Part shown: positions 1 to 12,527 of the stretch, piece after piece | How the letters are laid out: the number at the start of each line of letters is the position of its first letter | Numbering within the stretch: position 1 is the first letter of the stretch | NCBI GenBank assembly: GCA_049969615.1 | Contig: JBMFOM010000059.1 | Span: 1-12,527 of the forward strand | Direction of reading: 5' to 3' | Length of the DNA stretch: 12,527 nucleotides | Origin: a candidate division WOR-3 bacterium | Lineage (GTDB): Bacteria; Hydrothermota; Hydrothermia; JBDRYB01 | The notes under the pieces: generated by a model | Seen by the model: the letters and a program-made list of their open reading frames with translations, nothing else | The model's database searches: none | Told to the model about the DNA's origin: nothing | Made by a program: the position numbers and the translations under genes

Positions 1-56
1 GGAAACTGGTTGACCTCGTCTTCACAGTCCTCACTACGGGGGTCTATTATGAATAA
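1..56 (+). mobile_element. 3' end of a probable IS110-family transposase/recombinase CDS (partial; gene extends off the left edge)
   Basis: Frame starting at nt 3 reads (R)KLVDLVFTVLTTGVYYE* with TAA at 54-56; the leading Arg is inferred from the nGG codon. This fits the IS110 C-terminal pattern RKLxxxx(F/Y)xVLx(S/T)Gxx(F/Y). From memory, IS621 reads RKLAQVAYGVLKSGVPFD here. Only 18 codons are visible. Confidence 0.6.
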
Positions 57-69
57 AATATTGGAGGGT

Positions 70-249
70 TGATAAAGCAATAATAACTTGCTGGTTTGGG
101 GAAGGAGCATTTTGTTCAAGAGAATAGGATCCTAAGAGGGGGCCACTTGAAAAATCCCACCGAGAGAGCATTTCATCAAAGTTCTCTTCTAGCTACGATG
201 AGCCTCCCAGATGGGTACAGGGGGCAAACAGGGATTTTTCAGGGGTTTC
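70..249 (+). repeat. Dispersed ~185-bp repeat (MITE/REPIN-like), copy 1, lacking the outer GAGACCTC end
   Basis: Colinear with 2496-2672 and with the reverse complements of 4458-4633 and 11731-11910. Internal inverted repeat TGAAAAATCCC (148-158) / GGGATTTTTCA (231-241). Ends in CAGGGGTTTC. Confidence 0.95.
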
Positions 250-324
250 GAAGGATAAATCCAGACCCGTTCATCCTACCCTTTCCTTTTACGGCCCTGA
301 GGGACAGGTGAAGCCTGCGCCAAG

Positions 325-1137
325 CTAATACCTGCTCATCTTTCCCCTCTTCTTCGCTTCCCTCAGGAAAAGGTGAAGGCTCAGGAACCCGAAAGCTGCG
401 TAACCGGCCAGGTTCAGGATGAGAACCAGGCCCGCGTCCGAAAACAGGACCTCCATAAGGCCCCTGCCCTCCACGACTACCCGCCGGAGGCACTCCGCGC
501 CAGGCCCGACCGGAGTCGCGTATGCCAGGAGCCTTATCCAGATGGGCTTGGAGCCGGGGTCAAAGAACACCCCGGAGAAGAAAAGCAAGACCCACTGGAC
601 GAGGCCAGTTGCGCTGCCGACCCTCTTGAAAACCAGGGCGAGGCCAAAGAAGAACACCCCCAGAAACATGGACGACGCGACAGGGAACGGGAATATTGCC
701 GCGACTCCGGCCCAGTTCACCGAAGGCAGGGAGAGGCTCCCACCCATGAGCTTATAAATGCCAAGTATGGCGAGAGCCATGAGCGCGAACCAGGCTGTGT
801 CCCTGACGAACGCGGAAAGTCCCCTTGAGAACAGGATGAGGCCAAAGGGCATGGGGGACATATAGACATGTTCCAGTGTCCCAAGGACCGCATCCTCCCA
901 GGCTATGTAGCTCATCTCATACATCAGGCTCATGGCATACCACCAGAGCATGAAGCCCATGAGCATCTTGAAGAAGGCCTCCGGTGAAACAGGGCCTGCC
1001 TGGGCCACGACCGCGACTATCCCAAGAAAAAGGATTGCCGAACCCATGACCCAGAAGAAGTAGTTGAACCCATAATACCTGAACTCCGCAAGGTATTTCA
1101 CGAAGTCAGCCCTTATCGCGTAGGCAAAGGCTCTCAT
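325..1137 (-). CDS. ABC-2 type exporter permease
   Basis: 270 aa with about 6 hydrophobic segments, GTLEHVYMSP and FFSGVFF...P motifs typical of ABC-2 permeases; ATGA overlap with the ATPase gene. Confidence 0.9.
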   Translation of the reverse strand: MRAFAYAIRADFVKYLAEFRYYGFNYFFWVMGSAILFLGIVAVVAQAGPVSPEAFFKMLMGFMLWWYAMSLMYEMSYIAWEDAVLGTLEHVYMSPMPFGLILFSRGLSAFVRDTAWFALMALAILGIYKLMGGSLSLPSVNWAGVAAIFPFPVASSMFLGVFFFGLALVFKRVGSATGLVQWVLLFFSGVFFDPGSKPIWIRLLAYATPVGPGAECLRRVVVEGRGLMEVLFSDAGLVLILNLAGYAAFGFLSLHLFLREAKKRGKMSRY

Positions 1138-2018
1138 CTCAGCGTCTCCCTAAAGAGGTCCTCAAGGTCCGTTTCCTCCTTCGCGACCTCAACTATCTCG
1201 GCCTTCCCAAGAACCGAGAGTGCGGGTCCGAGGTCGTCCTTGGAAACGGTCAGGGTTGTCAGGCCATCCGTTTTCTCTCGCTTCCCAGGCACACCATCCG
1301 GAATGCTTCCCCTCACAGTTATCCTGTATTCCACCCGGTAGGCGGGCAATCCTGCGAGTTCATCCTTCCTACCCTGCCATATCACCTTTCCCGCGGATAT
1401 AAACGCGAAACGGGCGCCCAGCTCCTCCGCGAGGGCCATGTTGTGCGTGGTCAGGACGATCGTCCTGCAACTGTCCCCTGCCCATTCCCTGATCATGTCC
1501 TTCACGGTCTCCGCGGAGAAAACATCAAGGCCAAGGGTAGGCTCGTCTAAAAACAGGTATTTTGGCTCCCTTATCATTGCTAGCCCAATAGCTACCTTTT
1601 GTTTCATGCCCTTTGAAAGCTTGGTGAAACTCTCTTTTCTTTTTTCCAGAAGCCCAAGCCTCTCAAGCAGGTGATCAACCCTCTCCCGGAGAACCCTCCC
1701 CGGTATCCCCCAGAGATAACCAAAATACATCAGATTATCGTGGACTGAAAGATACCCATAAGCGTTCTCCGCGTTCTCAAAGACCGCGGCGATCATTCTC
1801 TGCAGGCCCTTAGTGCGCCTCCGGATGCTCTCGTTGTTGAAGAAGACATCCCCATGGTCCGGAAGGAGAACCCCGCAGGCTATCTTGATAAGGGTGGTCT
1901 TACCCGCGCCGTTCGGCCCCAGGAGGCAAAAAATACCCTCCGGGACATCAAGGCTCAGGCCGTCCAAGGCCACGGTCTTTCTGCCATATCTTTTGTGCAA
2001 ACAATCAAAGCGTATCAT
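1134..2018 (-). CDS. ABC exporter ATP-binding subunit (DrrA/CcmA-like)
   Basis: Walker A GPNGAGKT, signature LSKGMKQK, Walker B LFLDEP, H-loop TTH; GAGGT SD at 2027-2031 on the minus strand. Confidence 0.95.
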   Translation of the reverse strand: MIRFDCLHKRYGRKTVALDGLSLDVPEGIFCLLGPNGAGKTTLIKIACGVLLPDHGDVFFNNESIRRRTKGLQRMIAAVFENAENAYGYLSVHDNLMYFGYLWGIPGRVLRERVDHLLERLGLLEKRKESFTKLSKGMKQKVAIGLAMIREPKYLFLDEPTLGLDVFSAETVKDMIREWAGDSCRTIVLTTHNMALAEELGARFAFISAGKVIWQGRKDELAGLPAYRVEYRITVRGSIPDGVPGKREKTDGLTTLTVSKDDLGPALSVLGKAEIVEVAKEETDLEDLFRETLR

Positions 2019-2096
2019 CGTGATATACCTCTATGGTTTGAAAAAGGGCCTATTGATGGGGTTCTGGCGTAGGATAAATCAGCTGTGCGAGAGCGC

Positions 2097-2113
2097 GAGC
2101 CCCTCCGGGGCTC
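2097..2113. promoter_or_regulatory. Perfect 7-bp GC-rich hairpin in the ABC operon leader
   Basis: GAGCCCC-TCC-GGGGCTC; no U-tract on the minus strand, so not a clear intrinsic terminator. Confidence 0.4.
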
Positions 2114-2176
2114 AATTTCCCAGCATTATTTTAGAGACTGATCACCATTCAGTATCACCTCCTCTGAGGCGAGAAA

Positions 2177-2206
2177 ATTATAATGGGAATGGCCAGCTGG
2201 TTGCAA
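2177..2206 (-). promoter_or_regulatory. sigma70-type promoter for the ABC operon
   Basis: Minus strand TTGCAA-N18-TATAAT, followed by AGGAGGTG (2163-2156). Confidence 0.6.
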
Positions 2207-2211
2207 GCGCG

Positions 2212-2471
2212 CGGTGGGGGTTCTACAGGATCTCAAAGTTCCTGGAGAATCCCATCTCTCCGGACATGCTATTCCAGAGAGGGCGATCGGTCTTCTACAC
2301 CTCCGAGGATGAGTGTGCCTCTCCGTTTATGACCCGGTCGGCAAGCTCGTGAAGAGGTTGACCTTTGAGCCTGCAACTAACAAAATTCTTGATCTGGACC
2401 TGCGGCCTGGCGTCTATTTTCTTGAGATGAGAACCGGCTCATACAGGCTTCACCTTAAAGTGCTGATCTGA
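2212..2471 (+). pseudogene. Truncated, frameshifted remnant of a T9SS C-terminal sorting-domain (Por secretion tail) protein
   Basis: 2313-2471 reads VCLSVYDPVGKLVKRLTFEPATNKILDLDLRPGVYFLEMRTGSYRLHLKVLI*, with the VYDxxGKLV, PGVYFL and terminal KVLI hallmarks of type A CTDs. It is preceded by an in-frame TGA (2310-2312), and the upstream part appears to lie in another frame (...SVFYTSEDE). The 5' boundary is approximate. Confidence 0.7.
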
Positions 2472-2487
2472 TTTCCAATAGCATGGC

Positions 2488-2672
2488 GAGACCTCTGATA
2501 AAGTATTAATAACTTACTGGCTTGAGCCAGGAGCGCTTTGTCCAAGAGAACAGGGTTCTCAGAGGGTCCTTGAAAAATCTCGCCAAGGGGACATTTCCTC
2601 AAGGTTCCCTTCTAGCTACGATGAGGCTTTTGGATGGGGACCAAGGGCAAGCCGGGATTTTTCAGGGGTTTC
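2488..2672 (+). repeat. Dispersed ~185-bp repeat, copy 2 (complete)
   Basis: GAGACCTCTGATAAAG...GGGATTTTTCAGGGGTTTC; the outer ends are imperfect inverted repeats (12/15); inner IR at 2568-2581 / 2654-2667. Confidence 0.95.
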
Positions 2673-2718
2673 AATCAGGTGTAAGGTTTCCCGTGTTTCT
2701 TTGGAGGATCAGTGAAGA

Positions 2719-3504
2719 TCAGATGCTCAACCTGTAGAGCTTTGTGGGGTTTGACCTGAATATCTTTTCAATGACTTTTTTCTCAACGCCCTTGCGCTCC
2801 ATGTGAAAGACCAGCTTTGGCAGAACGAGGGGATCGTTTGAGAACGAAGAAAGGTCAGAAGAAATGAGCAGGTGATCCGGATCGTATTCCTCAAAGAGCA
2901 AGGCCGGCGTCAGGTTCTCCGGCTGGACAAAGGGATAAGGGGGCCACAGGCTCACCCCTGTCCAGTAACCAGCTTCAACCGCTTCCTTTGAGAGGTTGGG
3001 ATCGAGGTGGTCAATGACGACAAGATGCGGTGGAATGTCCGTCTCTTCAAGTATCTTCATCACCCTGTTGAAGACGCGCTTCTTGTGTTCATATGGCGTT
3101 GAGATCAAAATGGGCTTGTTGGTGTCCCTTGCCATCCCCACCTGAGCTTTCAGGACTTCCCTCTGCAATTTGTCGTTCGGATCAATCAACCCCGTCTCGC
3201 CTATGGCTACCGCCCCATCCTGGGAAAGGAGCTCCGGAATGTAGTCCAGCAGTTCAAAGACATCGTGAGGAATAGCTCCAGGGTGAATGCCAAACCCAAC
3301 ATAAAGCTTTAGACCCGCCTTCTCCGCCCTCTCGCGCTCCAAACGCAGGAGCCGGTCATAGTGATCCAGATAAACCTCTTTTGAGGACATCTTGAAGACA
3401 TCGTGGGAGAGCGCCACAGCCCAACGGACATTAGCCAGGACCATGGCCTCCAGGTCGTTGTAGCTCCTGACATCTATATGGAGATGCGTATCAAATATGT
3501 ACAT
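2719..3504 (-). CDS. TatD-related TIM-barrel metal-dependent hydrolase (COG1099-like)
   Basis: DTHLHIDVRSYNDLEAM, GIHP, IGETG, IDH and SSD motifs. Start moved from 3510 to the second ATG (3504) because TATAAT directly abuts the first ATG. Confidence 0.85.
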   Translation of the reverse strand: MYIFDTHLHIDVRSYNDLEAMVLANVRWAVALSHDVFKMSSKEVYLDHYDRLLRLERERAEKAGLKLYVGFGIHPGAIPHDVFELLDYIPELLSQDGAVAIGETGLIDPNDKLQREVLKAQVGMARDTNKPILISTPYEHKKRVFNRVMKILEETDIPPHLVVIDHLDPNLSKEAVEAGYWTGVSLWPPYPFVQPENLTPALLFEEYDPDHLLISSDLSSFSNDPLVLPKLVFHMERKGVEKKVIEKIFRSNPTKLYRLSI

Positions 3505-3510
3505 GGGCAT

Positions 3511-3516
3511 ATTATA
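3511..3516 (-). promoter_or_regulatory. -10 box giving a probable leaderless transcript of the TatD-like gene
   Basis: Minus strand TATAAT-ATGCCC-ATG; no SD. Confidence 0.55.
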
Positions 3517-3560
3517 AGGGATTTGCTTGGCCCTGCGCCATTACGAGACAGTTCCCGGAT

Positions 3561-3590
3561 TTGACACCCGGCTTGATCAGGAGCCATAAT
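3561..3590 (+). promoter_or_regulatory. sigma70-type promoter of mlaE
   Basis: TTGACA (3561-3566)-N18-CATAAT (3585-3590), 9 nt upstream of ATG 3600. The ORF-track TTG start is really the -35 box. Confidence 0.65.
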
Positions 3591-3599
3591 TTCGGCCTG

Positions 3600-4373
3600 A
3601 TGAATTCTTGGCTTTTGCCCTTTAGGCCGATAGTGGTCTTTTTCTACCACCTGGGTGGCATAGGTGAGCTCATGTGGGGAACATTGCTCTCCCTCCGCGA
3701 GATAAACAAGGTTCCCCGACTGCTCTGGGTTCAGCTCTCTTACATGGCAATGGGTTCTTTGCCCCTGGTCTTGGTTACATCCGCTTTCGTGGGTATGGTT
3801 GCCGCGGTGCAGACCGCTTATCAGATAAGGGATTTCGTGCCAATGATGTATCTAGGAGTGGGAGTGGCAAAGGCTGTGATGATAGAATTGGGGCCTGTGC
3901 TTGTGGCGCTGGTTTTTGCCGGCCGTGTTGGCGCGGGGATAGCCGCGGAGCTGGGAACTATGCGCGTCACAGAGCAGATAGACGCGCTGGAGCTCATGGC
4001 AATAGACCCATACCGTTACCTTGCCCTTCCCAGGCTCCTTGGTGCCATAATATCCGTTCCTCTCTTAACCGTCCTGGGCGAGGCCATCGCGCTCATTGGC
4101 GCGCTGTTTGTCGCCAGGTATGTCCTCTTTGTGCCAGTGGAAACCTTTACCCATGGCATGAGGATATACTTCGTGGCAAAGGACCTCCTGGGTGGCCTGG
4201 CAAAGGCGCTTGTTTTTGGTGCAATAGTCTCCCTGATGGGGGTCTATTTTGGATACAACGCGAAGGGTGGTGCAGTTGGGGTCGGTAGGGCAACCACCCA
4301 GGCCGTTGTGGCCTCAAGCCTCCTCATTCTGGCCGCGGATTATGTGCTTGGGACGATAATATTTTCAAAATAA
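3600..4373 (+). CDS. mlaE: MlaE/YrbE family ABC permease
   Basis: ELGPVLVALVFAGRVGAGIAAELGTMRVTEQIDALELMAIDP and GGAVGVGRATTQAVV are diagnostic MlaE motifs. Confidence 0.93.
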   Translation: MNSWLLPFRPIVVFFYHLGGIGELMWGTLLSLREINKVPRLLWVQLSYMAMGSLPLVLVTSAFVGMVAAVQTAYQIRDFVPMMYLGVGVAKAVMIELGPVLVALVFAGRVGAGIAAELGTMRVTEQIDALELMAIDPYRYLALPRLLGAIISVPLLTVLGEAIALIGALFVARYVLFVPVETFTHGMRIYFVAKDLLGGLAKALVFGAIVSLMGVYFGYNAKGGAVGVGRATTQAVVASSLLILAADYVLGTIIFSK

Positions 4374-4457
4374 AACAACGGCACACCCGCGGCTGTCCGG
4401 GAGTCTCGTTTCTTCGGTCTGCAAGTTCCCCGCTAATGTCCATGAGACAAAATTATG

Positions 4458-4641
4458 GAAACCCCTGAAAAATCCCGGTTTGTCCCTGGTCCCATCCGGG
4501 AGCCTCATCATAACCAGAAGAGAACCCTGAGGAAATGCCATTGTTGTGGGATTTTTCAGGGGGCCTCTTAGAACCCTGTTCTCTTGGACAAAGTGCTCCT
4601 CCCCCAAACCAGTGAGTTATTACTACCTTGTCAGAGGTCTC
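4458..4641 (-). repeat. Dispersed ~185-bp repeat, copy 3 (complete), flanked by the direct repeat AATTATG(G)
   Basis: GAAACCCCTGAAAAATCCC...TCAGAGGTCTC on the + strand; perfect 15-bp IR at 4462-4476 / 4548-4562; AATTATGG at 4451-4458 and 4642-4649. Confidence 0.95.
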
Positions 4642-4652
4642 AATTATGGTTG

Positions 4653-4697
4653 TTGACATCCGTGCAGATACATTATAATTTGCCCGGCAATCGGAGG
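4653..4697 (+). promoter_or_regulatory. Promoter and RBS for the YbjN-like gene
   Basis: TTGACA (4653-4658) and TATAAT (4674-4679), with a spacer of only 15 bp; GGAGG at 4693-4697. Confidence 0.55.
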
Positions 4698-4701
4698 CAA
4701 T

Positions 4702-5208
4702 ATGTCATATGCTAACGAAAAACACGAGGCCGCCCACAGGCAATTGGGCGAGATGCTGAAGCACCTCTTCGGCGAGGCAAACATAGGAACTCTGGATGAC
4801 ATAACCTACTATATCTGGTCAGGCTCAACTGTCGTCCACTTCACAACAGAGACATATGGCCGGGATGACGAGCCCATGGTTGAGATATGGGCCAAGGTCA
4901 CAGTAGGAACACCCCTCTCGGACGCGCTGGCGCGCTACCTTATTGTGGAGAACTCAAACCTGAACTTCGGCGGGTTCCGCTTCTATCCCTGGAAAGATGA
5001 TCCCAATACCGGGAATGTGGTGTTTGAACAGCGCCTCCCCTTCTACATGATAACCGATGAGGCCATAGAACACTTCACAGAAATGGTCGCCTGGACCGGA
5101 GATCACTATGACCAAGATATAGCTCAGACCTATGGCGGAAAGACCATGAAGGAGATCGTCTCGGAACCAGATGAAGGCTCATCAAAAGACGAGGAATGGG
5201 AAAAGTAA
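4702..5208 (+). CDS. YbjN / type III chaperone-like domain protein
   Basis: 168 aa, acidic, with GSTVV and LARYLIVENSNLNFGGF patterns typical of the YbjN/T3SS-chaperone fold; good SD. Confidence 0.7.
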   Translation: MSYANEKHEAAHRQLGEMLKHLFGEANIGTLDDITYYIWSGSTVVHFTTETYGRDDEPMVEIWAKVTVGTPLSDALARYLIVENSNLNFGGFRFYPWKDDPNTGNVVFEQRLPFYMITDEAIEHFTEMVAWTGDHYDQDIAQTYGGKTMKEIVSEPDEGSSKDEEWEK

Positions 5209-5237
5209 GGCCAGGCCTCACAACCTGGCCGGTTTCT
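5209..5237 (+). terminator. Possible terminator hairpin
   Basis: GGCCAGG-N8-CCTGGCC immediately after the stop codon; weak U-tract (GGTTTCT). Confidence 0.45.
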
Positions 5238-5267
5238 CAAACCAACCCCGTGGCACTTGCTGGCCAA

Positions 5268-5302
5268 AACCAGGAACCAGGAACTAACAATCCACAACCA
5301 CA
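5268..5302 (+). repeat. Degenerate heptamer tandem repeat (5 units)
   Basis: AACCAGG AACCAGG AACTAAC AATCCAC AACCACA. Confidence 0.55.
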
Positions 5303-6403
5303 CTGATAACCGAGGTTCGCTCCCTGTTTCCCGCTCTGGCGAGGTTCACATATCTGAACTGCGCTGGTCAGGGTCCTTTGAACACATGGGCCGCGACCCG
5401 CGTCGCGTCAATCCTGAAGACCTACATGACCAGTGGCTTTCTAGCTATATCCGAATGGAAGGCCATCCAGACAGAGGCAAGGTCTCTTCTGGCCCAGGTG
5501 ATGGCTGTTTTGCCCTCAGAGCTTGCCTTTACCCAGAGCACGACCAGGGGCATCCGAATAGCAATGGAGGCTATCCCTTGGCGGGATGGGGACAATGTAG
5601 TTGTTCAGCAGAAGGCCTTTCCGGCGCTGGTTTATCCGTGGGTCCACTCGCCGGTCCGTGGAGTTGAGGTCAGGTGGGCGACCGGGCCACACTCTGGCCT
5701 GGTGGATGTGATAAGGGGCCTGGTTGACCCCAAAACACGGGCCGTCTTTGTTGATTGGGTTCATTTCGTCACCGGCGAGATGGTGGATCTCGCGGCCTTG
5801 TCCCAAATGGCAGATGAGAGGGGATTCTATCTTGTTGTTGATACAACCCAGGGTCTCGGCCCCCTATTCCCCGACCTCTCATCCCTGAGGATTGATTTCC
5901 TGGCCAACACCGCGGCGAAGTGGCTTTTGGGCATAGAGGGATTGGCGTTCCTCTGTATCCGGAAGGAAGCAATGGATAACCTGCAGCCAGGGCCATTGGG
6001 CTGGCTTTCCGGACAATACGAGACCTTCTCCAGGCTTTTTCCGATGCCGGAGCCGGATCCCGGCGCACCCAGGTTTGAGGAGGGTAGCAGGGCCGTGATG
6101 CTCATCGCGGGATTCTCTGAAAGCTTGAAAATATTTCTCGGCGTCGGCAAAGAGCAGATAGCTTCAAAGGTGCGCGAGCTGACGGGACTTCTCATGGACG
6201 CGCTTGAGGAGAGAGGGTTTTACGTTGCTACCCCGCGAGAGCCACGGGCCGGCATAGTCTCATTCAGGCCAGGGGGGAATCCGGAGGAATATTACCAGCG
6301 CCTACGCGACGCGGGAGTAATTGTATCGCTCCGTGAGGGTTTGATAAGGGTCTCGCCACATTTCTTCAATACAACCGAGGAAATAAGGAGGGTTCTGATC
6401 TAG
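5303..6403 (+). CDS. Aminotransferase class V PLP enzyme (cystine lyase / isopenicillin-N-epimerase-like; no SufS/IscS catalytic Cys motif)
   Basis: VDTTQGLG, AAKWLLG (PLP Lys), RFEEGS and IRVSPHFFN motifs. The conserved N-terminus RSLFPAL...YLNCAGQGP lies in frame upstream of the track's TTG 5378, so the start is placed tentatively at CTG 5303. Confidence 0.85.
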   Translation: MITEVRSLFPALARFTYLNCAGQGPLNTWAATRVASILKTYMTSGFLAISEWKAIQTEARSLLAQVMAVLPSELAFTQSTTRGIRIAMEAIPWRDGDNVVVQQKAFPALVYPWVHSPVRGVEVRWATGPHSGLVDVIRGLVDPKTRAVFVDWVHFVTGEMVDLAALSQMADERGFYLVVDTTQGLGPLFPDLSSLRIDFLANTAAKWLLGIEGLAFLCIRKEAMDNLQPGPLGWLSGQYETFSRLFPMPEPDPGAPRFEEGSRAVMLIAGFSESLKIFLGVGKEQIASKVRELTGLLMDALEERGFYVATPREPRAGIVSFRPGGNPEEYYQRLRDAGVIVSLREGLIRVSPHFFNTTEEIRRVLI

Positions 6404-6432
6404 GGCGGCCTGCCGGATTCCAGCCTTTGACA

Positions 6433-8268
6433 TCATACCTTTCCCAACCACCTGCGGAGTCCCCACTCGGCCACCAGAAGCAGAACCGGCAGGAGAATGA
6501 GCCAGGGTATATCCAGCAATTTCAATGGGGGCGAAGGGCTTCGCAGGCCCTCAAGGAACCCTCTGAGCTCCTCCGGTGATCTGGCCAGAAAACCGCCAGA
6601 ACCCTCGGCTAGGCCCCTGAGAAAGCCGGTGTCCACGCCCCAGTCATATGCCTCTGCTGGCCAAGGCGCGACGGATACGGAGACAGTTTTCGTGCCTGCG
6701 AGATCGTTCCCCCTATAGAAGTCAACCCTAAACGAGTGATCTCCCGGCTCAAGCTCAAGCGGACCTGCCTGAAAAACCCCTGGCCCGATCTGCCTCATTG
6801 GTTGTCCTGCCACCCTGGGCCATACATCCCCTGCTGGCGAGCCGTCCGCGAGGCGAGCCTCGGCGTTAATGAATACTGGCTGACCTGAGAAAGCGTCCTT
6901 TGCCCACGCGAAGAGGCTCATCTTGCCAGAAAGCGCACGGGATATGAAATCAGAGACGATTATCCTGTATAACTCGCCGCCGGAGGCTGTGTTCTGTGCC
7001 CAAAGCTCTGGGCACGCGACATAGACATCCCCCTCCCTCCTGAACACAACCGGCCACGACCCAGCGAGCAACAAGATCTCCTGCGCCTGGCTTGCTGGGA
7101 TTTTCCAGAACCGGGTGATGGGCGGCAGAGGCTTCAGGATGCTATCCGGAACGGGCGAACCAGCCGCGGAACCGAGATAAACCCCTCCGCCCCTGTATTC
7201 AGACGCTCCGGGAATGCCCCAGTTGTCGCCAACCATAAAGATCAGACAGGGCTTTCCGGCCCTGTAATTTCCCAGTTCCTTCCTGCTCCCTATGAGAACA
7301 AAAGCATCTGCGTTCCTCTGAGGCCCTGGGCAATCCACCACGCTATCGCCCTTCATTTCTGTCCACCTTCCGCTTGCCAACCGGGCAAAGGTTCTCACAA
7401 CTATACCCGGCACACCCTCTGCGGCCCTCCTGACAGCGCCAACATCGGGCCAGGGTCCCTCTGCTATTATGGCAAGACCGAATCCTCCCTCCTCAATGTT
7501 TATTGTCCTGGAGCGGGAGTTATCCTCTGTGGCGTCCTCGCTCATATCTGGAATTAACCTCATAACGAGCCTTGTCTGGCCAGGGTTTTTTGCCACGAGG
7601 TTGAACCTCAGAAAACCTTGGCCTTCTCTCAGAAGCAGGGAGGTGTCCTTCACCGTCTCTCCAGCCAGTGAGATCAGACACCTTCCACGCCAATCCCCTC
7701 CGCGGAGCGCGTAGCTCGCTGTCAGCGGGAATTCCTGCCCGACGCTGATTGTTCTTGGCAGTTCAAGATCAAGGAGAGATATGTTAAATCTCCGGCTCTT
7801 TGGCGGGATAATAGTCAGAACAGGTGCTAGCGGATAGACCTCTGATGGCGCGTTGTGCAGGCCGTCAGACAGAAGTATAAAAGCATCCGCGCCGCGGGAC
7901 AGGGCAAGGCTGAGGTCCGTGCAATCCGATGAATCAACGGACAGGGGCAGGGCTGGATCGTTTATTAGCCTATCCGATACGCCCACTATGTCCTTCTTGC
8001 CGGGGAGCGAGCGGATTTTTCCGAGCGTGGAATCCTCCCACGCCACAACCTCTCCCATGCTGGGCGAGAGATCAAGAATGACGAGGACTTTTGGTTCCAG
8101 GGGAACACCGCCCTTTATGCGCGGGTTCACCAACAGGGCCACAAGCGCGGCGAGTGCCAATGCCCTTATCATGAGCAGATACCACGGACCGCGCCTGTAT
8201 AGGAGGAAGGACGAGCCCGTGGCAAGGACGAGGGCTATGAGGAGAAGGGTCACAGTAATCTGGTTCAA
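6433..8268 (-). CDS. Membrane-anchored VWA-domain protein with an Ig-like domain
   Basis: Two N-terminal TM segments, MIDAS-like ILDLSPSM and LLSDG, Ig-like segment ending EDNSRS, and C-terminal TM plus EWGLRR. Confidence 0.8.
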   Translation of the reverse strand: MNQITVTLLLIALVLATGSSFLLYRRGPWYLLMIRALALAALVALLVNPRIKGGVPLEPKVLVILDLSPSMGEVVAWEDSTLGKIRSLPGKKDIVGVSDRLINDPALPLSVDSSDCTDLSLALSRGADAFILLSDGLHNAPSEVYPLAPVLTIIPPKSRRFNISLLDLELPRTISVGQEFPLTASYALRGGDWRGRCLISLAGETVKDTSLLLREGQGFLRFNLVAKNPGQTRLVMRLIPDMSEDATEDNSRSRTINIEEGGFGLAIIAEGPWPDVGAVRRAAEGVPGIVVRTFARLASGRWTEMKGDSVVDCPGPQRNADAFVLIGSRKELGNYRAGKPCLIFMVGDNWGIPGASEYRGGGVYLGSAAGSPVPDSILKPLPPITRFWKIPASQAQEILLLAGSWPVVFRREGDVYVACPELWAQNTASGGELYRIIVSDFISRALSGKMSLFAWAKDAFSGQPVFINAEARLADGSPAGDVWPRVAGQPMRQIGPGVFQAGPLELEPGDHSFRVDFYRGNDLAGTKTVSVSVAPWPAEAYDWGVDTGFLRGLAEGSGGFLARSPEELRGFLEGLRSPSPPLKLLDIPWLILLPVLLLVAEWGLRRWLGKV

Positions 8269-8271
8269 GTT

Positions 8272-8673
8272 TCAAGGAGAAAGGATCAAAAGGCCCAGAT
8301 TCTCAAATCTCTTGAAATCGGTGGGTTCAAGGTTTTCCTTGCCCTCCCAGGGGGAAATCTCAGTCTCGGGGACTATAGCTTCAATATGAAACCGAAGTAT
8401 TCTGTTTGTTCTTTTGTCTATTTCTGCTGAACCATTTACCTTTACATTCCTCCTGAATGGGTGAAGGTGCGGGCAGGCTGACCTCAATTGCCCTGTCCGT
8501 TTCAGAATCCTGAGAGGCACAAGCTCGGCCAGCTCCTTTATTATCTGTCCAAGAGCGACTCTGTAGGCAGAGTTAAATTTCCCGAGAACCCTTAGGAGAA
8601 CATCAAGGGGTGATTCGCCCTCATCCGCCTCTGTGAAGCGAATGACAACTGAAACTTCTTCAATTCTTTTCAA
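8272..8673 (-). CDS. Hypothetical protein, first gene of an operon with the VWA protein
   Basis: 133-aa ORF with AAGGGG SD before a TTG start and a promoter upstream; stops 3 nt before the VWA gene start. Confidence 0.65.
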   Translation of the reverse strand: MKRIEEVSVVIRFTEADEGESPLDVLLRVLGKFNSAYRVALGQIIKELAELVPLRILKRTGQLRSACPHLHPFRRNVKVNGSAEIDKRTNRILRFHIEAIVPETEISPWEGKENLEPTDFKRFENLGLLILSP

Positions 8674-8696
8674 ACAAACCCCTTAGCACTGATAAT

Positions 8697-8724
8697 AGTA
8701 TAGCAAGGTCGCATCCCTTTTCAA
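8697..8724 (-). promoter_or_regulatory. sigma70 promoter with extended -10
   Basis: Minus strand TTGAAA-N16-TATACT, with TGc directly before the -10. Confidence 0.55.
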
Positions 8725-8733
8725 CCAAAATGC

Positions 8734-9456
8734 TTACTTCCAGAACAAGTCCACTGAACCCAGAAAATAATCCAGACCCTCCGCGCCAAAGTCCAGGGAA
8801 GCAAAGGGAAGTCCCAGGCCAAAACCCCAGGTAGGTCCCCTTCTATCCGCTATCGGGTCCTCCCTCCAGCCGGCCCTAATGGAAAAATCCGCGAAGGATG
8901 ACACCGTAAAGGAAGCGTCCGTGCCTACGCTCATCCTCCAGCGGTTCTCGCCCCAGGCCTGACGAAAATCCGCTATTATCAGGTATGGAACGCTGTATCC
9001 GGTGACTAGAGAGAACGAGAGGTTGGTCCCAGGTTCGCCCAGAAGGTCATAGAAGCCGATTCCGCCGGCGAGCCTGCCGAGGCTCCTTATTGACCACTGG
9101 GGAACGACCCCAAAGGAAAGCGGGACATTGTGTTCCTTGCCGAGATGCGCATAGGCTACCAGGCCTCCAACGGATAGCCATGGGAACGCGATTTTGCTCA
9201 GAGACACCCCGTATTCCCACCTGTCCGAGGCTACTGAGCTGTACAGGAGGGAGTTGAACCCATAGGCCGGAAGCAGGATTGCGATGGACTGAGTGTCTCC
9301 ATGAATAGTCCTGGCATAGATGCCCTCCAGCCTGCCAAACAAGCCGAGTGTTCCGGGGTTATCCCAGGCCCCTCCGGGGTCATAGGGTAGGGTTGAGAGA
9401 GAGCCGAGGGCAATGCCCTTGGCGCTCCAGAAGGCACCGAGAATAAATACTATCAC
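8734..9456 (-). CDS. PorV/PorQ (FadL-like) outer-membrane beta-barrel protein
   Basis: SAKGIALG...D..GAWDNPGTLG matches the N-terminal motif of PorV/FadL-type barrels; amphipathic strands, LRAG-like SIRAGW and an aromatic C-terminus. Start is GTG 9456 (GGAG SD) or GTG 9471; the track's extension to 9726 is antisense to fabG. Confidence 0.7.
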   Translation of the reverse strand: MIVFILGAFWSAKGIALGSLSTLPYDPGGAWDNPGTLGLFGRLEGIYARTIHGDTQSIAILLPAYGFNSLLYSSVASDRWEYGVSLSKIAFPWLSVGGLVAYAHLGKEHNVPLSFGVVPQWSIRSLGRLAGGIGFYDLLGEPGTNLSFSLVTGYSVPYLIIADFRQAWGENRWRMSVGTDASFTVSSFADFSIRAGWREDPIADRRGPTWGFGLGLPFASLDFGAEGLDYFLGSVDLFWK

Positions 9457-9480
9457 ACCACTTATCTCCACGGTAGTGAA

Positions 9481-9509
9481 ATTATGGCTCACCAAGCGGC
9501 TTGGTTCAA
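9481..9509 (-). promoter_or_regulatory. Promoter of the beta-barrel gene with an operator-like palindrome in the spacer
   Basis: Minus strand TTGAAC-N17-CATAAT; perfect 7-1-7 palindrome ACCAAGC-G-GCTTGGT at 9491-9505. Confidence 0.5.
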
Positions 9510-9565
9510 GTGCCTGTTTAGGGCCATGGGTGCATGTGTATCTCGTGGGCCAATATAATATGGAT

Positions 9566-10285
9566 ATGCGCGCAATAATAACCGGAGCTTCAAGAGGAAT
9601 AGGTTTTGAGATAGCGAAGAGATTCGCTGAGGCTGGCAAGCTGGCCATGGTTGATGTCCTTGAAGATGACCTCAGAAAGGCCGGTGAAGAACTCAAGGCC
9701 ATGGGCGCTGAGGTCATGATCTTCACCGCTGATGTCAGGGATTATTCGGCCGCGGAGGAGATCGTCAGGTCAGTCGCGGATGCCTGGGGAGGGATTGATC
9801 TGTTGGTTAACAACGCTGGTGTCACCAGGGACAAGCTTTTCATGCGCGCCGAAAAAGAGGATTGGGACACAGTGATAGACATCAACCTTAAAGGCGCTTT
9901 CGTTTATTCAAGGGCAGTTTTTCCCTTGATGCTCAAGCAGAAGTCCGGCGTGATAATCAACATGTCCTCTATCGTGGGTATAATAGGAAATTTCGGACAG
10001 ACCTCTTATTCCGCCTCAAAAGCCGGACTCATCGCGCTGACAAAATCCCTCGCTAAGGAAGGAGGCAAACGCGGGGTCAGATGTGTCGCGGTCGCGCCCG
10101 GGTTCATAAAGACCCCAATGACCGAAGCGCTTCCGGATGAAATAAAGTCAGACTACATGTCCAGAATAGCCCTGGGCCGTTTCGGCGAGGCCTCTGAGGT
10201 CGCGGAGCTGGTTCACTTCCTCGCGTCGGAAAGGGCCTCGTACATAACCGGCCAGGTATTCGTGATTGACGGAGGAATGATATGA
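9566..10285 (+). CDS. fabG: 3-oxoacyl-ACP reductase (SDR family)
   Basis: TGASRGIG, NNAGVTRD, GNFGQTSYSASKAG, APGFIKT and YITGQV motifs. Start is ATG 9566, six nt after TATAAT (9554-9559). Confidence 0.9.
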   Translation: MRAIITGASRGIGFEIAKRFAEAGKLAMVDVLEDDLRKAGEELKAMGAEVMIFTADVRDYSAAEEIVRSVADAWGGIDLLVNNAGVTRDKLFMRAEKEDWDTVIDINLKGAFVYSRAVFPLMLKQKSGVIINMSSIVGIIGNFGQTSYSASKAGLIALTKSLAKEGGKRGVRCVAVAPGFIKTPMTEALPDEIKSDYMSRIALGRFGEASEVAELVHFLASERASYITGQVFVIDGGMI

Positions 10286-10313
10286 ATTCCCTCGGAGAGG
10301 CAGGGGTTTTGCT

Positions 10314-11732
10314 ATGCCAGAGATAAAGGCCCTGAAGTGCGAGTCGTGTGGCGCGCCCCTGGAAGCCGAGCTAGGCCAGACCATGCTCAAGTGTCCGTTC
10401 TGCGGCACAGTGAACATGATCAAGCCTGATCCGGGGGAAACGGAGACCAGGATTGAGCTGAGCGCGGTGGTTGAGACCACTGTTGAAGAGGTTGTCAAGA
10501 TTACTCCTCCTCCTCCTCCAACAACGACATCAAAGATCATCGGCGGCCTCATTGCCGCCGTTATACTCCTCAGCATAATAGGCCCCACTATAGCCGTGGT
10601 TGTTGCCGAGATTATCGGCAAGATGAGGGGCCCGAATTACTCCCTCTTACAGGGTGAGATCAGGGGCGACAAGATGGCCGCGGTTCTCTACGGGGACTCA
10701 AAATACTACCTGGCGCGCGTGAATCCCAAAACTGGAAGATTGATCTGGCGAAAGGAAATAGGCAATGGCTACTCGCTCAGAAGGATAAGCCTTGGGGAAG
10801 ATAGATTCTATACCTTGTCAGATGATGGCTCCCTGAGATGTTATGACCTGGACAGAGGAGACATTCTCTGGGAAGAGAACCCGGGCGCGCTTGTTTATCT
10901 GGAAAAGAACCTCATCCCTTTAGGCGATGGGCTTTGTTTCCTGGGCAATGATGATACGCTGAGGTTCTTTGATGGGAATGGGAAGCAGACCATGCGCGTG
11001 TTTCAGAATGACTGGCGCTCGTTCAGCGTCTACGGCGATAAGATATATCTAGCCCAGGACAGTCTGATAAGGGCATTCAACCCAAAAAACGGCAAGGTGC
11101 TGTTTACCGTGAGGATGGGCCATGGCCTCCGGCCCTTCGGTCCTTATGTCATGGGCAACGATTACTATACTAACAAGACACGAATCTTCAGAATTGACCC
11201 CCAAAATGGCTCCGCACTTTGGCAAATATCATTCCCCGGCGATTACTCCTTTGATTCCCTTTTAGTCACAGGCGGAGGTCTCTATCTCCTTGATGATTCC
11301 ATCGTTTCCATTAATCCAACCAATGGCCAGACATTGGGAGTCCTCCATGATGAGGCCTGGGAACCCACGAAGATTATCTCCGGGGACAAGGCCCTATATG
11401 TTATTCTCAGAAGGACGAAAGGCGTAACAACCTACAGGCTCATTGCCGTGAACCCCGGCTCCCTTGCAAAGAAATGGGGCGAAGAACTCAAAGACACCCT
11501 CATTATAGTTGGGGATGGTGTTTTTATCGTTGACACAGCCTCCGGGAGCATTATCGCGAGGAAGCTGGACCCTGAAACCGGCAAGGAACTCTGGATGCAG
11601 AGACATAAGATGAGGTATGTTGCTATATCAACGCTTTATCTTGTGGGCGACAACCTCATAATAGGTTCCCGGGAGACGATTTCCCTGAGAACTAGGGATG
11701 GAAAGAAGGCCTGGAAGGGGATAATGAAGTAA
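10314..11732 (+). CDS. Zn-ribbon + single TM + PQQ-like (BamB-type) beta-propeller protein
   Basis: CESC...CPFC, a Pro/Thr linker, one hydrophobic helix, then repeated (D/N)PxTG..LW blades (NPKTGRLIW, DLDRGDILW, DPQNGSALW, DPETGKELW). Confidence 0.85.
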   Translation: MPEIKALKCESCGAPLEAELGQTMLKCPFCGTVNMIKPDPGETETRIELSAVVETTVEEVVKITPPPPPTTTSKIIGGLIAAVILLSIIGPTIAVVVAEIIGKMRGPNYSLLQGEIRGDKMAAVLYGDSKYYLARVNPKTGRLIWRKEIGNGYSLRRISLGEDRFYTLSDDGSLRCYDLDRGDILWEENPGALVYLEKNLIPLGDGLCFLGNDDTLRFFDGNGKQTMRVFQNDWRSFSVYGDKIYLAQDSLIRAFNPKNGKVLFTVRMGHGLRPFGPYVMGNDYYTNKTRIFRIDPQNGSALWQISFPGDYSFDSLLVTGGGLYLLDDSIVSINPTNGQTLGVLHDEAWEPTKIISGDKALYVILRRTKGVTTYRLIAVNPGSLAKKWGEELKDTLIIVGDGVFIVDTASGSIIARKLDPETGKELWMQRHKMRYVAISTLYLVGDNLIIGSRETISLRTRDGKKAWKGIMK

Positions 11733-11918
11733 AGCCCCTGAAAAATCCGGTTTGTCCTTTGTTCCCATCCGGAAGCCTCATCATAGCTAGAATGGAACCC
11801 TCAGGAAATGCCATTGTTGCGGGATTTTTCAGGGGTCCCTCTTAGTAGACCCTTGTTCCCTTGGACAAAATGTTCCTGGCCCAAACCAGTAAGTTATTTC
11901 TACTTTGCCAGAGGTCTT
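11731..11918 (-). repeat. Dispersed ~185-bp repeat, copy 4 (complete); overlaps the stop codon of the propeller gene
   Basis: AAAGCCCCTGAAAAATCC...GGGATTTTTCAGGGG...CAGAGGTCTT; about 85% identical to copy 3 by manual alignment. Confidence 0.95.
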
Positions 11919-11947: not shown

Positions 11948-12364
11948 TTAGTGGAAACTCAATACCCGTAAGAGCCAGAGCGCGGCTACAGCGCGTTTCT
12001 CAAAGATACCGACCGTGCCTTCCATGTGGCCTATTGTTCTGTATGATTCGTCAGTTATGTCCCCGTCATCCTCTATGTGCAGTATTGTCCTGTAGCTCTC
12101 ATCCTTGACATCTCCATCGTCCTCAACATAGCCGACTATCCTGTATGAGGCATTTTTTATGTCCCCGTCATCATCTATATAGCCTATGGTCGTATAGCTG
12201 GCGTCCTTGATGTCTCCGTCGTCCTCAACATAGGCTATTGTGCGGTAGTTGGCGTCCTTGATGTCTCCGTCATCCTCCATGTAAGCTATGGTCCTGTAAC
12301 TGCCGTCCTTTATGGTTATATCCTCGGCAAAAACCGGCGCGCTGAGCATAAGTAATACTATCAT
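11948..12364 (-). CDS. Small secreted protein with six 17-aa repeats (beta-flower-like)
   Basis: Short hydrophobic signal MIVLLMLSAPVFA, repeats of GDIKDASYRTIGYVEDD, and a hydrophobic C-terminal helix. Confidence 0.8.
   Translation of the reverse strand: MIVLLMLSAPVFAEDITIKDGSYRTIAYMEDDGDIKDANYRTIAYVEDDGDIKDASYTTIGYIDDDGDIKNASYRIVGYVEDDGDVKDESYRTILHIEDDGDITDESYRTIGHMEGTVGIFEKRAVAALWLLRVLSFH
12017..12319 (-). repeat. Intragenic 51-bp tandem repeat, about 6 units
   Basis: Recurring ttgatgtctccgtc(a/g)tcctc-like units at a 51-bp period; variation is largely synonymous or conservative. Confidence 0.85.
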
Positions 12365-12481
12365 ATTTTAATTATTTAGCCTGACCATGAACTAATTCAA
12401 TCAGTTCTAGAGCTCACCCGACACATCTCAGCCCTCTATGGATTGAAGGCGCGGCCGTGGCACAGGGGCCTCGCAATCGGG

Positions 12482-12526
12482 TCAGGTCTCTGAGGGTATG
12501 TAGCCCCTCTGGAGGTCCTTGACCAG
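12482..12526 (-). CDS. Possible 3' end of a gene entering from the right edge
   Basis: Reads LVKDLQRGYIPSET*; too short to assign. Confidence 0.3.
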   Translation of the reverse strand: MVKDLQRGYIPSET

Positions 12527-12527
12527 G

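Follow-up and report, generated by a model that had tools for sequence, protein, structure and literature searches.

A dispersed repeat of a candidate division WOR-3 bacterium as a probable IS5-derived MITE and as the landing site of an IS110-type element with a putative bridge RNA

The window analysed here, a contig of 12,527 nucleotides from a candidate division WOR-3 bacterium (JBMFOM010000059.1, assembly GCA_049969615.1), contains four copies of a dispersed repeat of about 185 bp, and the question it raises is what kind of element this is and how it came to be spread so widely. The repeat was most consistent with a MITE (a non-autonomous DNA transposon) derived from the ends of an IS5-family element, with a left terminal repeat that is targeted by a younger IS110 element, the latter probably guided by a bridge RNA; we give this reading a probability of about 85%. 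The initial annotation had not recognised the repeat as belonging to any named family, whereas its anatomy, with IS5-like terminal repeats, target duplications and empty orthologous sites, is that of a MITE. The features of the window are as follows.

1..69, + strand: right end of an IS110-type element, with the final transposase codons, the stop codon at 54-56, and then 13 bp of non-coding sequence
70..71, + strand: TG core dinucleotide, present at both IS110 junctions; positions 9-10 of the MITE left terminal repeat
70..249, + strand: MITE copy 1, interrupted by the IS110 insertion; first 8 bases missing
250..254, + strand: candidate right copy of the 5-bp target duplication GAAGG of copy 1, matched by the flanking sequence where contig C4 ends
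2488..2672, + strand: MITE copy 2, full length; target duplication absent; at a gene-order breakpoint
4451..4457, + strand: AATTATG, 7-bp target duplication flanking copy 3, first repeat
4458..4641, - strand: MITE copy 3, full length; exact 7-bp target duplication present
4462-4475 and 4549-4562: outer and inner repeat arms of copy 3
4642..4648, + strand: AATTATG, 7-bp target duplication flanking copy 3, second repeat
11731..11918, - strand: MITE copy 4, full length; exact target duplication absent

All four copies lie where the initial annotation had placed them and on the same strands, and the shared sequence blocks and imperfect inverted terminal repeats it listed were found in them. Its by-eye identity of 75-85% was roughly right, the pairwise figure being 77-87%. 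The sharp boundaries it described hold across 71 copies but not at the left edge of copy 1, which is unnatural; copy 1 lacks its first 8 bases because the element at 1-69 is inserted in its left terminal repeat. Missed at first was that the right terminal repeat recurs inside the element, at about position 80-97 of the unit; this makes the last ~110 bp of the MITE a hairpin. The window copies sit between long or Pfam-annotated ORFs, and the right end of copy 4 overlaps the stop codon of a beta-propeller gene.

A model built from 60 genome copies gave 229 matches in the genome and none on the reversed genome. The 187-bp, non-coding family occupies 211 loci on 104 of the 203 contigs, amounting to 26,028 bases or 1.3% of the 2.06-Mb genome. 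The very large genome-wide family that had been predicted is therefore real. Its predicted density is not, since the genome carries one locus per ~10 kb and the window is about three times denser. Among 151 strong loci, 23 lay mostly within crudely called ORFs. Among 40 relatives searched, diverged copies appeared in one (G001).

Evidence for a transposon came from the ends. The 71 copies have imperfect 15-bp inverted terminal repeats; the left and right termini are unequal, and the G001 copies are more symmetric (GAGACC...GGTCTC). Exact target duplications of 5-7 bp flanked 15 of 56 intact copies, compared to a permutation mean of 0.42 (maximum 3 in 1000), and were absent from the other 41. 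Orthologous sites were also empty: the mlaE-YbjN gap that holds copy 3 contains no element in either congener, G001 or G002, and the gap corresponding to copy 4 measures ~25-50 bp without an element in both congeners, compared to ~215 bp here. These were both of the two testable window sites, at which divergence hides the single-copy footprint.

The near-perfect inverted pair around a ~75-bp loop, together with 13 right modules that lack the left arm, would also suit a REP/REPIN-like element in which the 110-bp hairpin is the mobile unit, moved by an HUH transposase (RAYT or IS200/IS605). The target duplications, however, bracket the full 187-bp unit, and HUH enzymes are not known to make target duplications. 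Most copies start at model position 1, and several of the right modules that stand alone have their first base within the left arm or at the start of a contig, which is what truncation would produce. We regard this origin as very unlikely.

The initial annotation had also suggested that the repeat is old and possibly domesticated. Its age was borne out, as copies average 80% pairwise identity compared to 96-100% among the IS110 ends, which makes the family older than the genome's active IS elements; the MITE is now probably inactive. Domestication, or a structured non-coding RNA under selection (a promoter, terminator, riboswitch-like element or sRNA), might be read from the non-uniform column variation (32 columns with one difference or none, compared to 1.2 expected), from one copy that folds better than its shuffles (z -2.6) and from the persistence of diverged copies in G001. 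Against this, orientation was random: among 98 intergenic loci no strand or orientation bias relative to neighbouring genes was found, the counts of neighbours reading towards and away from the element being 52 and 46 on the left and 51 and 47 on the right. A search of the window against Rfam gave nothing at E<=1. The consensus structure computed from 56 copies was weak (-3.5 and -2.9 kcal/mol), both-sided changes occurred in single sequences only, no recurrent compensatory change was found in the 56 copies, and the fold signal stems from the repeat arms. Together with the empty congener sites and the many copies that the model search found truncated or interrupted, these data make selection for such a function very unlikely.

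The MITE termini resemble those of the IS5 elements ISNme1 and ISPg1 (Table 2 of PMC4596501) as well as the ends of IS5 (NF033581) elements in the same class, intact in G089 and a remnant in G028; the likeness to ISNme1 and to the G089 and G028 ends is 10-13 of 15 bases, counted by eye. Known IS5-related MITEs, as excerpts of PMC4596501 describe them, include ATR of Neisseria meningitidis, with ISNme1 as its proposed parent, and BrickBuilt/MITEPgRS of Porphyromonas gingivalis. The present family shares with the portrait in those excerpts non-coding sequence, termini starting with GAGAC, target duplications of variable length and a parent assigned through terminal-repeat similarity. It differs from what is given there in being about ten times more numerous (211 loci, compared to 19 for ATR and BrickBuilt; PMC4596501). 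It also differs in its unequal termini and internal copy of the right repeat; it has no minisatellite, no internal similarity to these elements was seen, and no parent was found in the genome. The MITE would have been spread in trans by a DDE transposase of ISNme1/ISPg1 type, which may since have been lost or may be unassembled.

An autonomous element with the same termini was not found. No transposase with MITE termini turned up in G000, G001 or G002, in 64 genomes of the class (searched with NF033581), in 272 genomes of the phylum (pattern search) or at 25 GTDB pattern loci, although multi-copy ISs are largely unassembled in G000, which limits the search there. The IS5 assignment consequently rests on end similarity. 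Several candidates were set aside. Matches to PF01609, PF05598 and PF13751 in G000 were confined to an IS1182 and an IS1634, the termini of which differ from those of the MITE; none of the 12 PF01609 matches in G002 showed similarity to the MITE model. At the 25 GTDB loci no recognisable transposase lay between such ends, a few being small unrelated elements with similar termini, and G073, G080 and G024 gave one pattern match each with no element seen. Five viral loci were alike over no more than the first 21-29 bases. Derivation from an IS1182-family or other DDE element instead of IS5 is unlikely, with some small chance left to it by an intact IS1182 130 bp from one MITE copy on contig C82 and by a duplication length of 5-7 bp that fits no single family. 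That IS1182, however, is bounded by termini of a different kind and has a separate MITE family; the ends of the IS1634 are likewise unlike those of the MITE, and the closest termini seen are those of IS5 elements.

Copies of the IS5-like MITE proved to be patchworks. Ancestry of the left and right halves correlated at r 0.013, compared to 0.28 when columns were split at random (none of 500 splits as low), and singletons made up 89 of 1271 differences among copies. The IS1182-MITE family, used as a control, was tree-like (r 0.90). Another repeat family was partly decoupled too (0.22 compared to 0.46), so this family is not alone in being a patchwork; in control families C, D and E, full-length copies were too few. 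The inner loop is inverted at the internal repeat in 4 of 79 copies. Exchange between copies, together with inversion at the internal repeat, may have produced the patchwork. Window correlations hinted at a linked right module, as from a single recombination breakpoint at the internal repeat, but r2 was near background everywhere (0.021-0.032) and such a breakpoint is not established.

The assembly is a short-read one of 203 contigs, many of them broken by repeats (266 ends fall in repeat clusters), and chimeric joins of similar copies could in principle account for both the patchwork and the missing duplications. We consider this quite unlikely. Identical runs between copies average 19 bp (99th percentile 39), and the IS1182-MITE copies are more similar to each other yet remain tree-like. 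The 15 copies with intact duplications, which chimeric joins would break, are equally decoupled (0.04 compared to 0.32).

The left edge of copy 1 brings in the second element. The remainder of the element at 1-69 lies beyond the contig start and is unassembled. Its right end recurs at 10 contig ends with 98.5-100% identity, and the longest such end contains a 35-aa frame that aligns with positions 311-341 of the 343 of NF033542, the only family found (E 0.0039, far below the family cut-off). The frame is 42% identical to IS110 C-termini in G028, and the G000 assembly gave no match to the DEDD RuvC-like (PF01548) or serine (PF02371) domains. Left junctions consist of the first 8 MITE bases followed by TG (one ends in TT), and right junctions restart with TG. 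Fourteen of 15 left junctions fall at one TG in the MITE left repeat, in one orientation; of 12 true right junctions, 9 continue as MITE, 2 begin like MITE and 1 does not. Of the remaining AGACCYCTGAT sites in the genome, 56 of 76 are within MITE loci.

At its end, contig C4 carries GAAGG, MITE bases 1-8, the TG and then the left end of the IS110 element, which makes it a candidate for the other half of the split copy 1. Chance alone would give about 0.8 such pairs in 104 left-right comparisons, compared to the 2 observed, and the GAAGG duplication of copy 1 is therefore suggestive only. In sequencing run X1 the junction of IS110 end and MITE formed one 168-base contig at a depth of 30.8, compared to 3.95 for a unique piece; since X1 may derive from the source sample itself and depth does not translate into copy number, the observation is not counted as support.

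The IS110 left end contains a stem-loop that spells the target site, as bridge RNAs do. The target 10-mer would occur in the left end by chance at ~3e-4, and it lies inside a predicted internal loop (z -2.3). One strand of this loop carries the 10 target bases, which run up to the TG, and the strand facing it carries the complement of TGAT. The sequence thus offers a putative 10-base left guide and a putative 4-base right guide on opposite sides of the loop, the 4-mer alone not being significant. At nine of the 14 occupied sites there is a single-base mismatch to the guide, which would be a U-G wobble. Only half of the putative donor loop is visible, as a copy of the right end plus core that follows the target loop with the same CCTTTG lead-in in two mini-elements. 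A perfect TATAAT is present in the left end, and the junction supplies a TTG-led hexamer 18 bases upstream that matches 3 of 6 bases of the -35 consensus. The left-end RNA may thus be a bridge RNA that guides the IS110 recombinase to the MITE left repeat. A circular intermediate would have inserted at the TG and split the MITE left end, and the MITE would serve IS110 as an abundant, mostly intergenic landing site.

IS4321 and IS5075 are IS110-superfamily elements that insert at a fixed position in the terminal repeats of the Tn21 family. The window element likewise inserts at a fixed site in another element's terminal repeat; unlike these IS1111-group elements, with their subterminal repeats and downstream guide, it has its guide in the left end. 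In the excerpts of PMC11208160 and PMC11187229 on IS621 and other IS110-group bridge-RNA elements, the shared features are a long left and a short right non-coding end, a core dinucleotide at both junctions, a repeated intergenic target and a left-end stem-loop in which the left guide equals the left side of the target plus core and the right guide complements the core plus right side. The target here is a MITE terminal repeat with core TG, where the account of IS621 has a REP; membership of the group is incomplete, as the assembly lacks the transposase and the other half of the donor loop. ISPpu9 of Pseudomonas putida, with ssr9/MITEPpu9, likewise belongs to the IS110 group, lies in a dispersed repeat and has short derivatives without genes, delimited by left and right end boxes, according to excerpts of PMC12288879. 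MITEPpu9 is described there as having its own B' box and forming circles, whereas the putative mini-element here is a cut left end known from two copies.

Relatives of the IS110 element were sought more widely. The exact left-end pattern had 0 metagenome matches, and among the 87 loci picked out by a relaxed pattern neither nhmmer nor tblastn revealed a similar one. Nothing was found in G001 or G002, and a search of 1.84 billion representative proteins returned one match, a repetitive irrelevant protein, and no full transposase. With the MITE and the IS110 mini-element as queries, no plasmid match was found.

The two mini-copies of the IS110 element, each 167 bp, stop at the probable donor guide: each is the left end cut exactly at the 11-base copy of right end plus core, at the place expected of that guide. 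We tentatively propose, as a possibility that we ourselves doubt, that an IS110 bridge recombinase can use the DNA encoding its own donor guide as a second right end. The transposase gene would thereby be lost, leaving a 167-bp element encoding half a bridge RNA, in a three-tier ecology in which dead, copy-shuffled IS5-type MITEs supply the landing sites. In such a half RNA the target loop would be intact and the donor loop cut at the core, and the element may still move in trans or compete for the recombinase. A narrow search of main texts found no report of a mini-element ending at a donor guide, and a term search of bioRxiv 10.64898/2026.08.31.748434 found no passage with donor-guide wording; a similarly narrow search found no literature on mosaicism or gene conversion in MITEs.

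The repeat and its targeting by IS110 are a clear new example of behaviours already known. With 211 loci in 2 Mb the load is heavy, for an otherwise ordinary MITE. The copies may drive rearrangement: copy 2 sits at a gene-order break, where the 3' neighbour of the TatD gene is a class-V aminotransferase gene in G001 and G002 and a different gene in the window. With linkage between copies nearly absent, the family could serve to study ectopic gene conversion among short bacterial repeats. The IS110 element offers a natural pair of putative bridge RNA and target, documented by 14 insertions alongside one off-target site, in which a one-base mismatch is tolerated. The host is probably a hot-spring organism, and the pair is a candidate thermostable bridge system once the transposase is recovered. 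If the mini-elements do end at the donor guide, the guide would be a self-substrate hazard that bears on IS110 decay, bridge-RNA elements would have a general, built-in route for shedding mini-elements, and the same hazard would apply to bridge-recombinase constructs that carry the RNA gene beside donor sites.

The four ~185-bp repeat copies reported in the initial annotation are present in the window, with pairwise identities of 77-87%. They lie among the following features:

1-69: right end of an IS110-type element, cutting copy 1
70-249 (+): copy 1
2488-2672 (+): copy 2
4458-4641 (-): copy 3
8734-9726 and 9413-10285: ORFs on opposite strands, overlapping solely through upstream alternative starts
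11731-11918 (-): copy 4
11948-12364 (-): 138-aa protein built from 17-residue repeats, with a match to PF21785 (5-fold beta-flower family)
12414-12527: terminal part of a further multi-copy element, which breaks the contig and clusters with 11 other contig ends

The 17-residue repeats of the 138-aa protein account for the 51/102-bp direct repeats at 12029-12334. The Pfam match of the reductase ORF in the overlapping pair begins at residue 54-58, and Pfam returned no match for the window ORFs of 330, 611, 270 and 133 aa.

A profile built on the four window copies gave 214 matches in the source genome (2.06 Mb in 203 contigs, the window being contig C59); one built on 60 clean copies gave 229, with none on the reversed genome. 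Merging of overlaps left 211 loci on 104 contigs, occupying 26,028 bases (1.3% of the genome). The family is thus large and genome-wide, as had been proposed, but the suggested density of one copy per ~3 kb is not representative: the genome carries one locus per ~10 kb, and the window about three times that average. Model coordinates make 64 loci full-length, and a stricter rule leaves 56 with both ends intact, on which duplications, identity, fold and linkage were computed. These 56 have a mean pairwise identity of 80% (88% to the consensus), and no pair reaches 97%.

The 187-bp unit opens with GAGACCYCTGATAAA, and its last bases are the complement of GAAACCCCTGAAAAA. The right repeat recurs internally (about position 80-97), which makes a hairpin of the final ~110 bp. 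Exact target duplications flank 15 of the 56 intact copies (5 bp in ten, 6 bp in two, 7 bp in three), compared with 0.42 copies for shuffled flanks (never more than 3 in 1000 shuffles); no exact duplication of 5-7 bp borders the remaining 41. Copy 3 is flanked by a 7-bp duplication. In two congeners, short gaps without the repeat stand at the positions matching copies 3 and 4, providing the empty orthologous sites that had been sought, and copy 2 lies where gene order departs from both. Being short, non-coding and present in many copies, with terminal repeats, target duplications and empty sites, the repeat is a MITE.

Gene context was taken from a crude ORF caller at 151 strong loci: 98 were intergenic and flanked by two visible neighbours, 30 lay at contig edges and 23 fell mostly within ORFs, these calls being provisional. 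The 98 intergenic loci showed no orientation preference relative to their neighbours. Rfam returned nothing at E<=1. For one copy the predicted fold is better than that of its shuffled versions (z -2.6); the consensus fold of the 56 copies is weak, with both-sided changes only in single sequences. Orientation, Rfam, fold and empty sites thus give no sign of a selected RNA or regulatory role, as the earlier suggestion of domestication would imply.

BLAST matched the MITE in one of 40 other genomes, the congener G001, whose several copies are diverged, full-length and more symmetric at their ends. The right-end pattern matched four of 271 other genomes of the phylum, namely G001 and three with single matches, at each of which the element itself was absent. 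As parents, the IS1182 and IS1634 genes of the source genome were rejected on differing termini. The nearest ends among those compared belong to the IS5 family: ISNme1 and ISPg1 (PMC4596501), and two IS5 elements of the same class, one intact (G089) and one a remnant (G028), with 10-13 of 15 bases alike by a by-eye count. No transposase-bearing element with the exact MITE ends was found in the congener G002, the GTDB pattern matches or G089/G028. An IS5-family origin is therefore an inference from the termini; most multi-copy ISs of the source genome are unassembled. Three GTDB loci from unrelated phyla (L052, L061, L073) hold small 133-194-bp elements with GAGACC-type termini that are probably other IS5-type MITEs. 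Two internally deleted IS5-type elements of G002 (L220 on C31, L231 on C29) have GAGCCTGTTG termini and an inner motif resembling the MITE right end.

The genome is repeat-rich in general. With the MITE masked, 486 more segments (68 kb) have >=8 self-matches, 266 of 406 contig ends lie in repeat clusters, and several families nest within one another. IS1182- and IS1634-type ends interrupt MITE copies. An intact IS1182 lies on contig C82 (L002:718-2424), and its termini match those of a 109-bp MITE family (C121:1233-1343; 33 matches, 20 full), which seems to have an inner right-repeat copy and the three-repeat layout of the 187-bp MITE.

The MITE copies appear to be patchworks. Only 89 of 1271 differences from the consensus are singletons, and across 38 two-allele columns r2 is 0.12 for columns up to 5 bp apart and drops to about 0.024 at separations above 15 bp, close to the floor of 0.018. 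How closely two copies are related in the left half is no guide to their relatedness in the right half (r 0.013, against a mean of 0.28 for random column splits, none of 500 as low), and the 15 copies with duplications are equally decoupled (0.04 vs 0.32). As controls, the IS1182-derived MITE is tree-like (0.90 vs 0.89, n=20) and a composite repeat family partly decoupled (0.22 vs 0.46, n=21). The loop is inverted exactly between inner and outer repeats in 4 of 79 copies having the left arm. Recurrent mutation at hot sites, or assembly error, keeps a small probability as the source of this pattern; copy-to-copy exchange is the likely cause.

Copy 1 is a genuine copy but not complete at the left as annotated, its first 8 bases being missing behind 69 bp of other sequence. 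Those 69 bp recur at 10 contig ends (98.5-100% identical). The frame closing there, assembled for 35 residues, resembles C-terminal positions 311-341 of IS110 model NF033542 (E 0.0039, the sole family listed) and is 42% identical to IS110 proteins of G028. Thirteen contig ends and two internal mini-copies carry the left end, and 14 of these 15 left junctions follow the first 8 MITE bases plus TG (one has TT). Right-pattern matches number 13, one by chance; in the remaining 12 the MITE resumes from TG in nine, two start MITE-like then diverge, and one is a non-MITE site starting TGATC. This single position, single orientation and common dinucleotide fit the IS110 signature as described in PMC11208160. 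The genome retains 76 matching 11-mers, 56 of them in MITE loci. Catalytic transposase domains of the element were not found in the assembly, nor relatives of its left end in metagenomes, plasmids or congeners. The end of contig C4 shares GAAGG with the right flank of copy 1 and might be its other half; the pairing is suggestive only, since 104 comparisons gave 2 matching pairs against about 0.8 expected. At C63:78-199 three elements are nested: the 13-bp right end of one IS110 copy, itself lying in a remnant of the 187-bp MITE terminus, is interrupted by an IS1182-type MITE.

In the predicted fold, a stem in the left end encloses an internal loop, one strand of which is GAGACCTCTG, the target left side plus core, and the other ATCA, the complement of TGAT; a crude estimate puts the chance of the target 10-mer at 3e-4. 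The predicted loop has the layout of a bridge-RNA target-binding loop. Nine of 14 occupied sites have C where the guide carries T, which a U-G wobble would accommodate. Joining the ends places a TTG-led hexamer (3 of 6) 18 bases upstream of a perfect TATAAT, a hint of a promoter at the circle junction. The element thus resembles the IS110 group in its targeting and predicted target loop; its IS110-type transposase and donor loop are putative.

The mini-elements on C12 and C3 follow the left end for 167 bases and end at an 11-base repeat of right end and core, directly after which the rest of the MITE resumes. CCTTTG, the lead-in also of the target guide, precedes this copy, which occupies the place expected for the left donor guide. 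A plain deletion sparing 9 bases of the right end keeps some probability, the full left end being unassembled. The simplest reading remains that the DNA between the guide-coding sequence and the true right end was deleted, either through slippage or by recombinase action; the latter would be plausible because IS621 excision is reported to require donor-arm recognition only (preprint 10.64898/2026.08.31.748434). The nearest published case found is ssr9/MITEPpu9 of ISPpu9 (PMC12288879), and targeting of REPs and terminal repeats by IS110-superfamily elements is already published.
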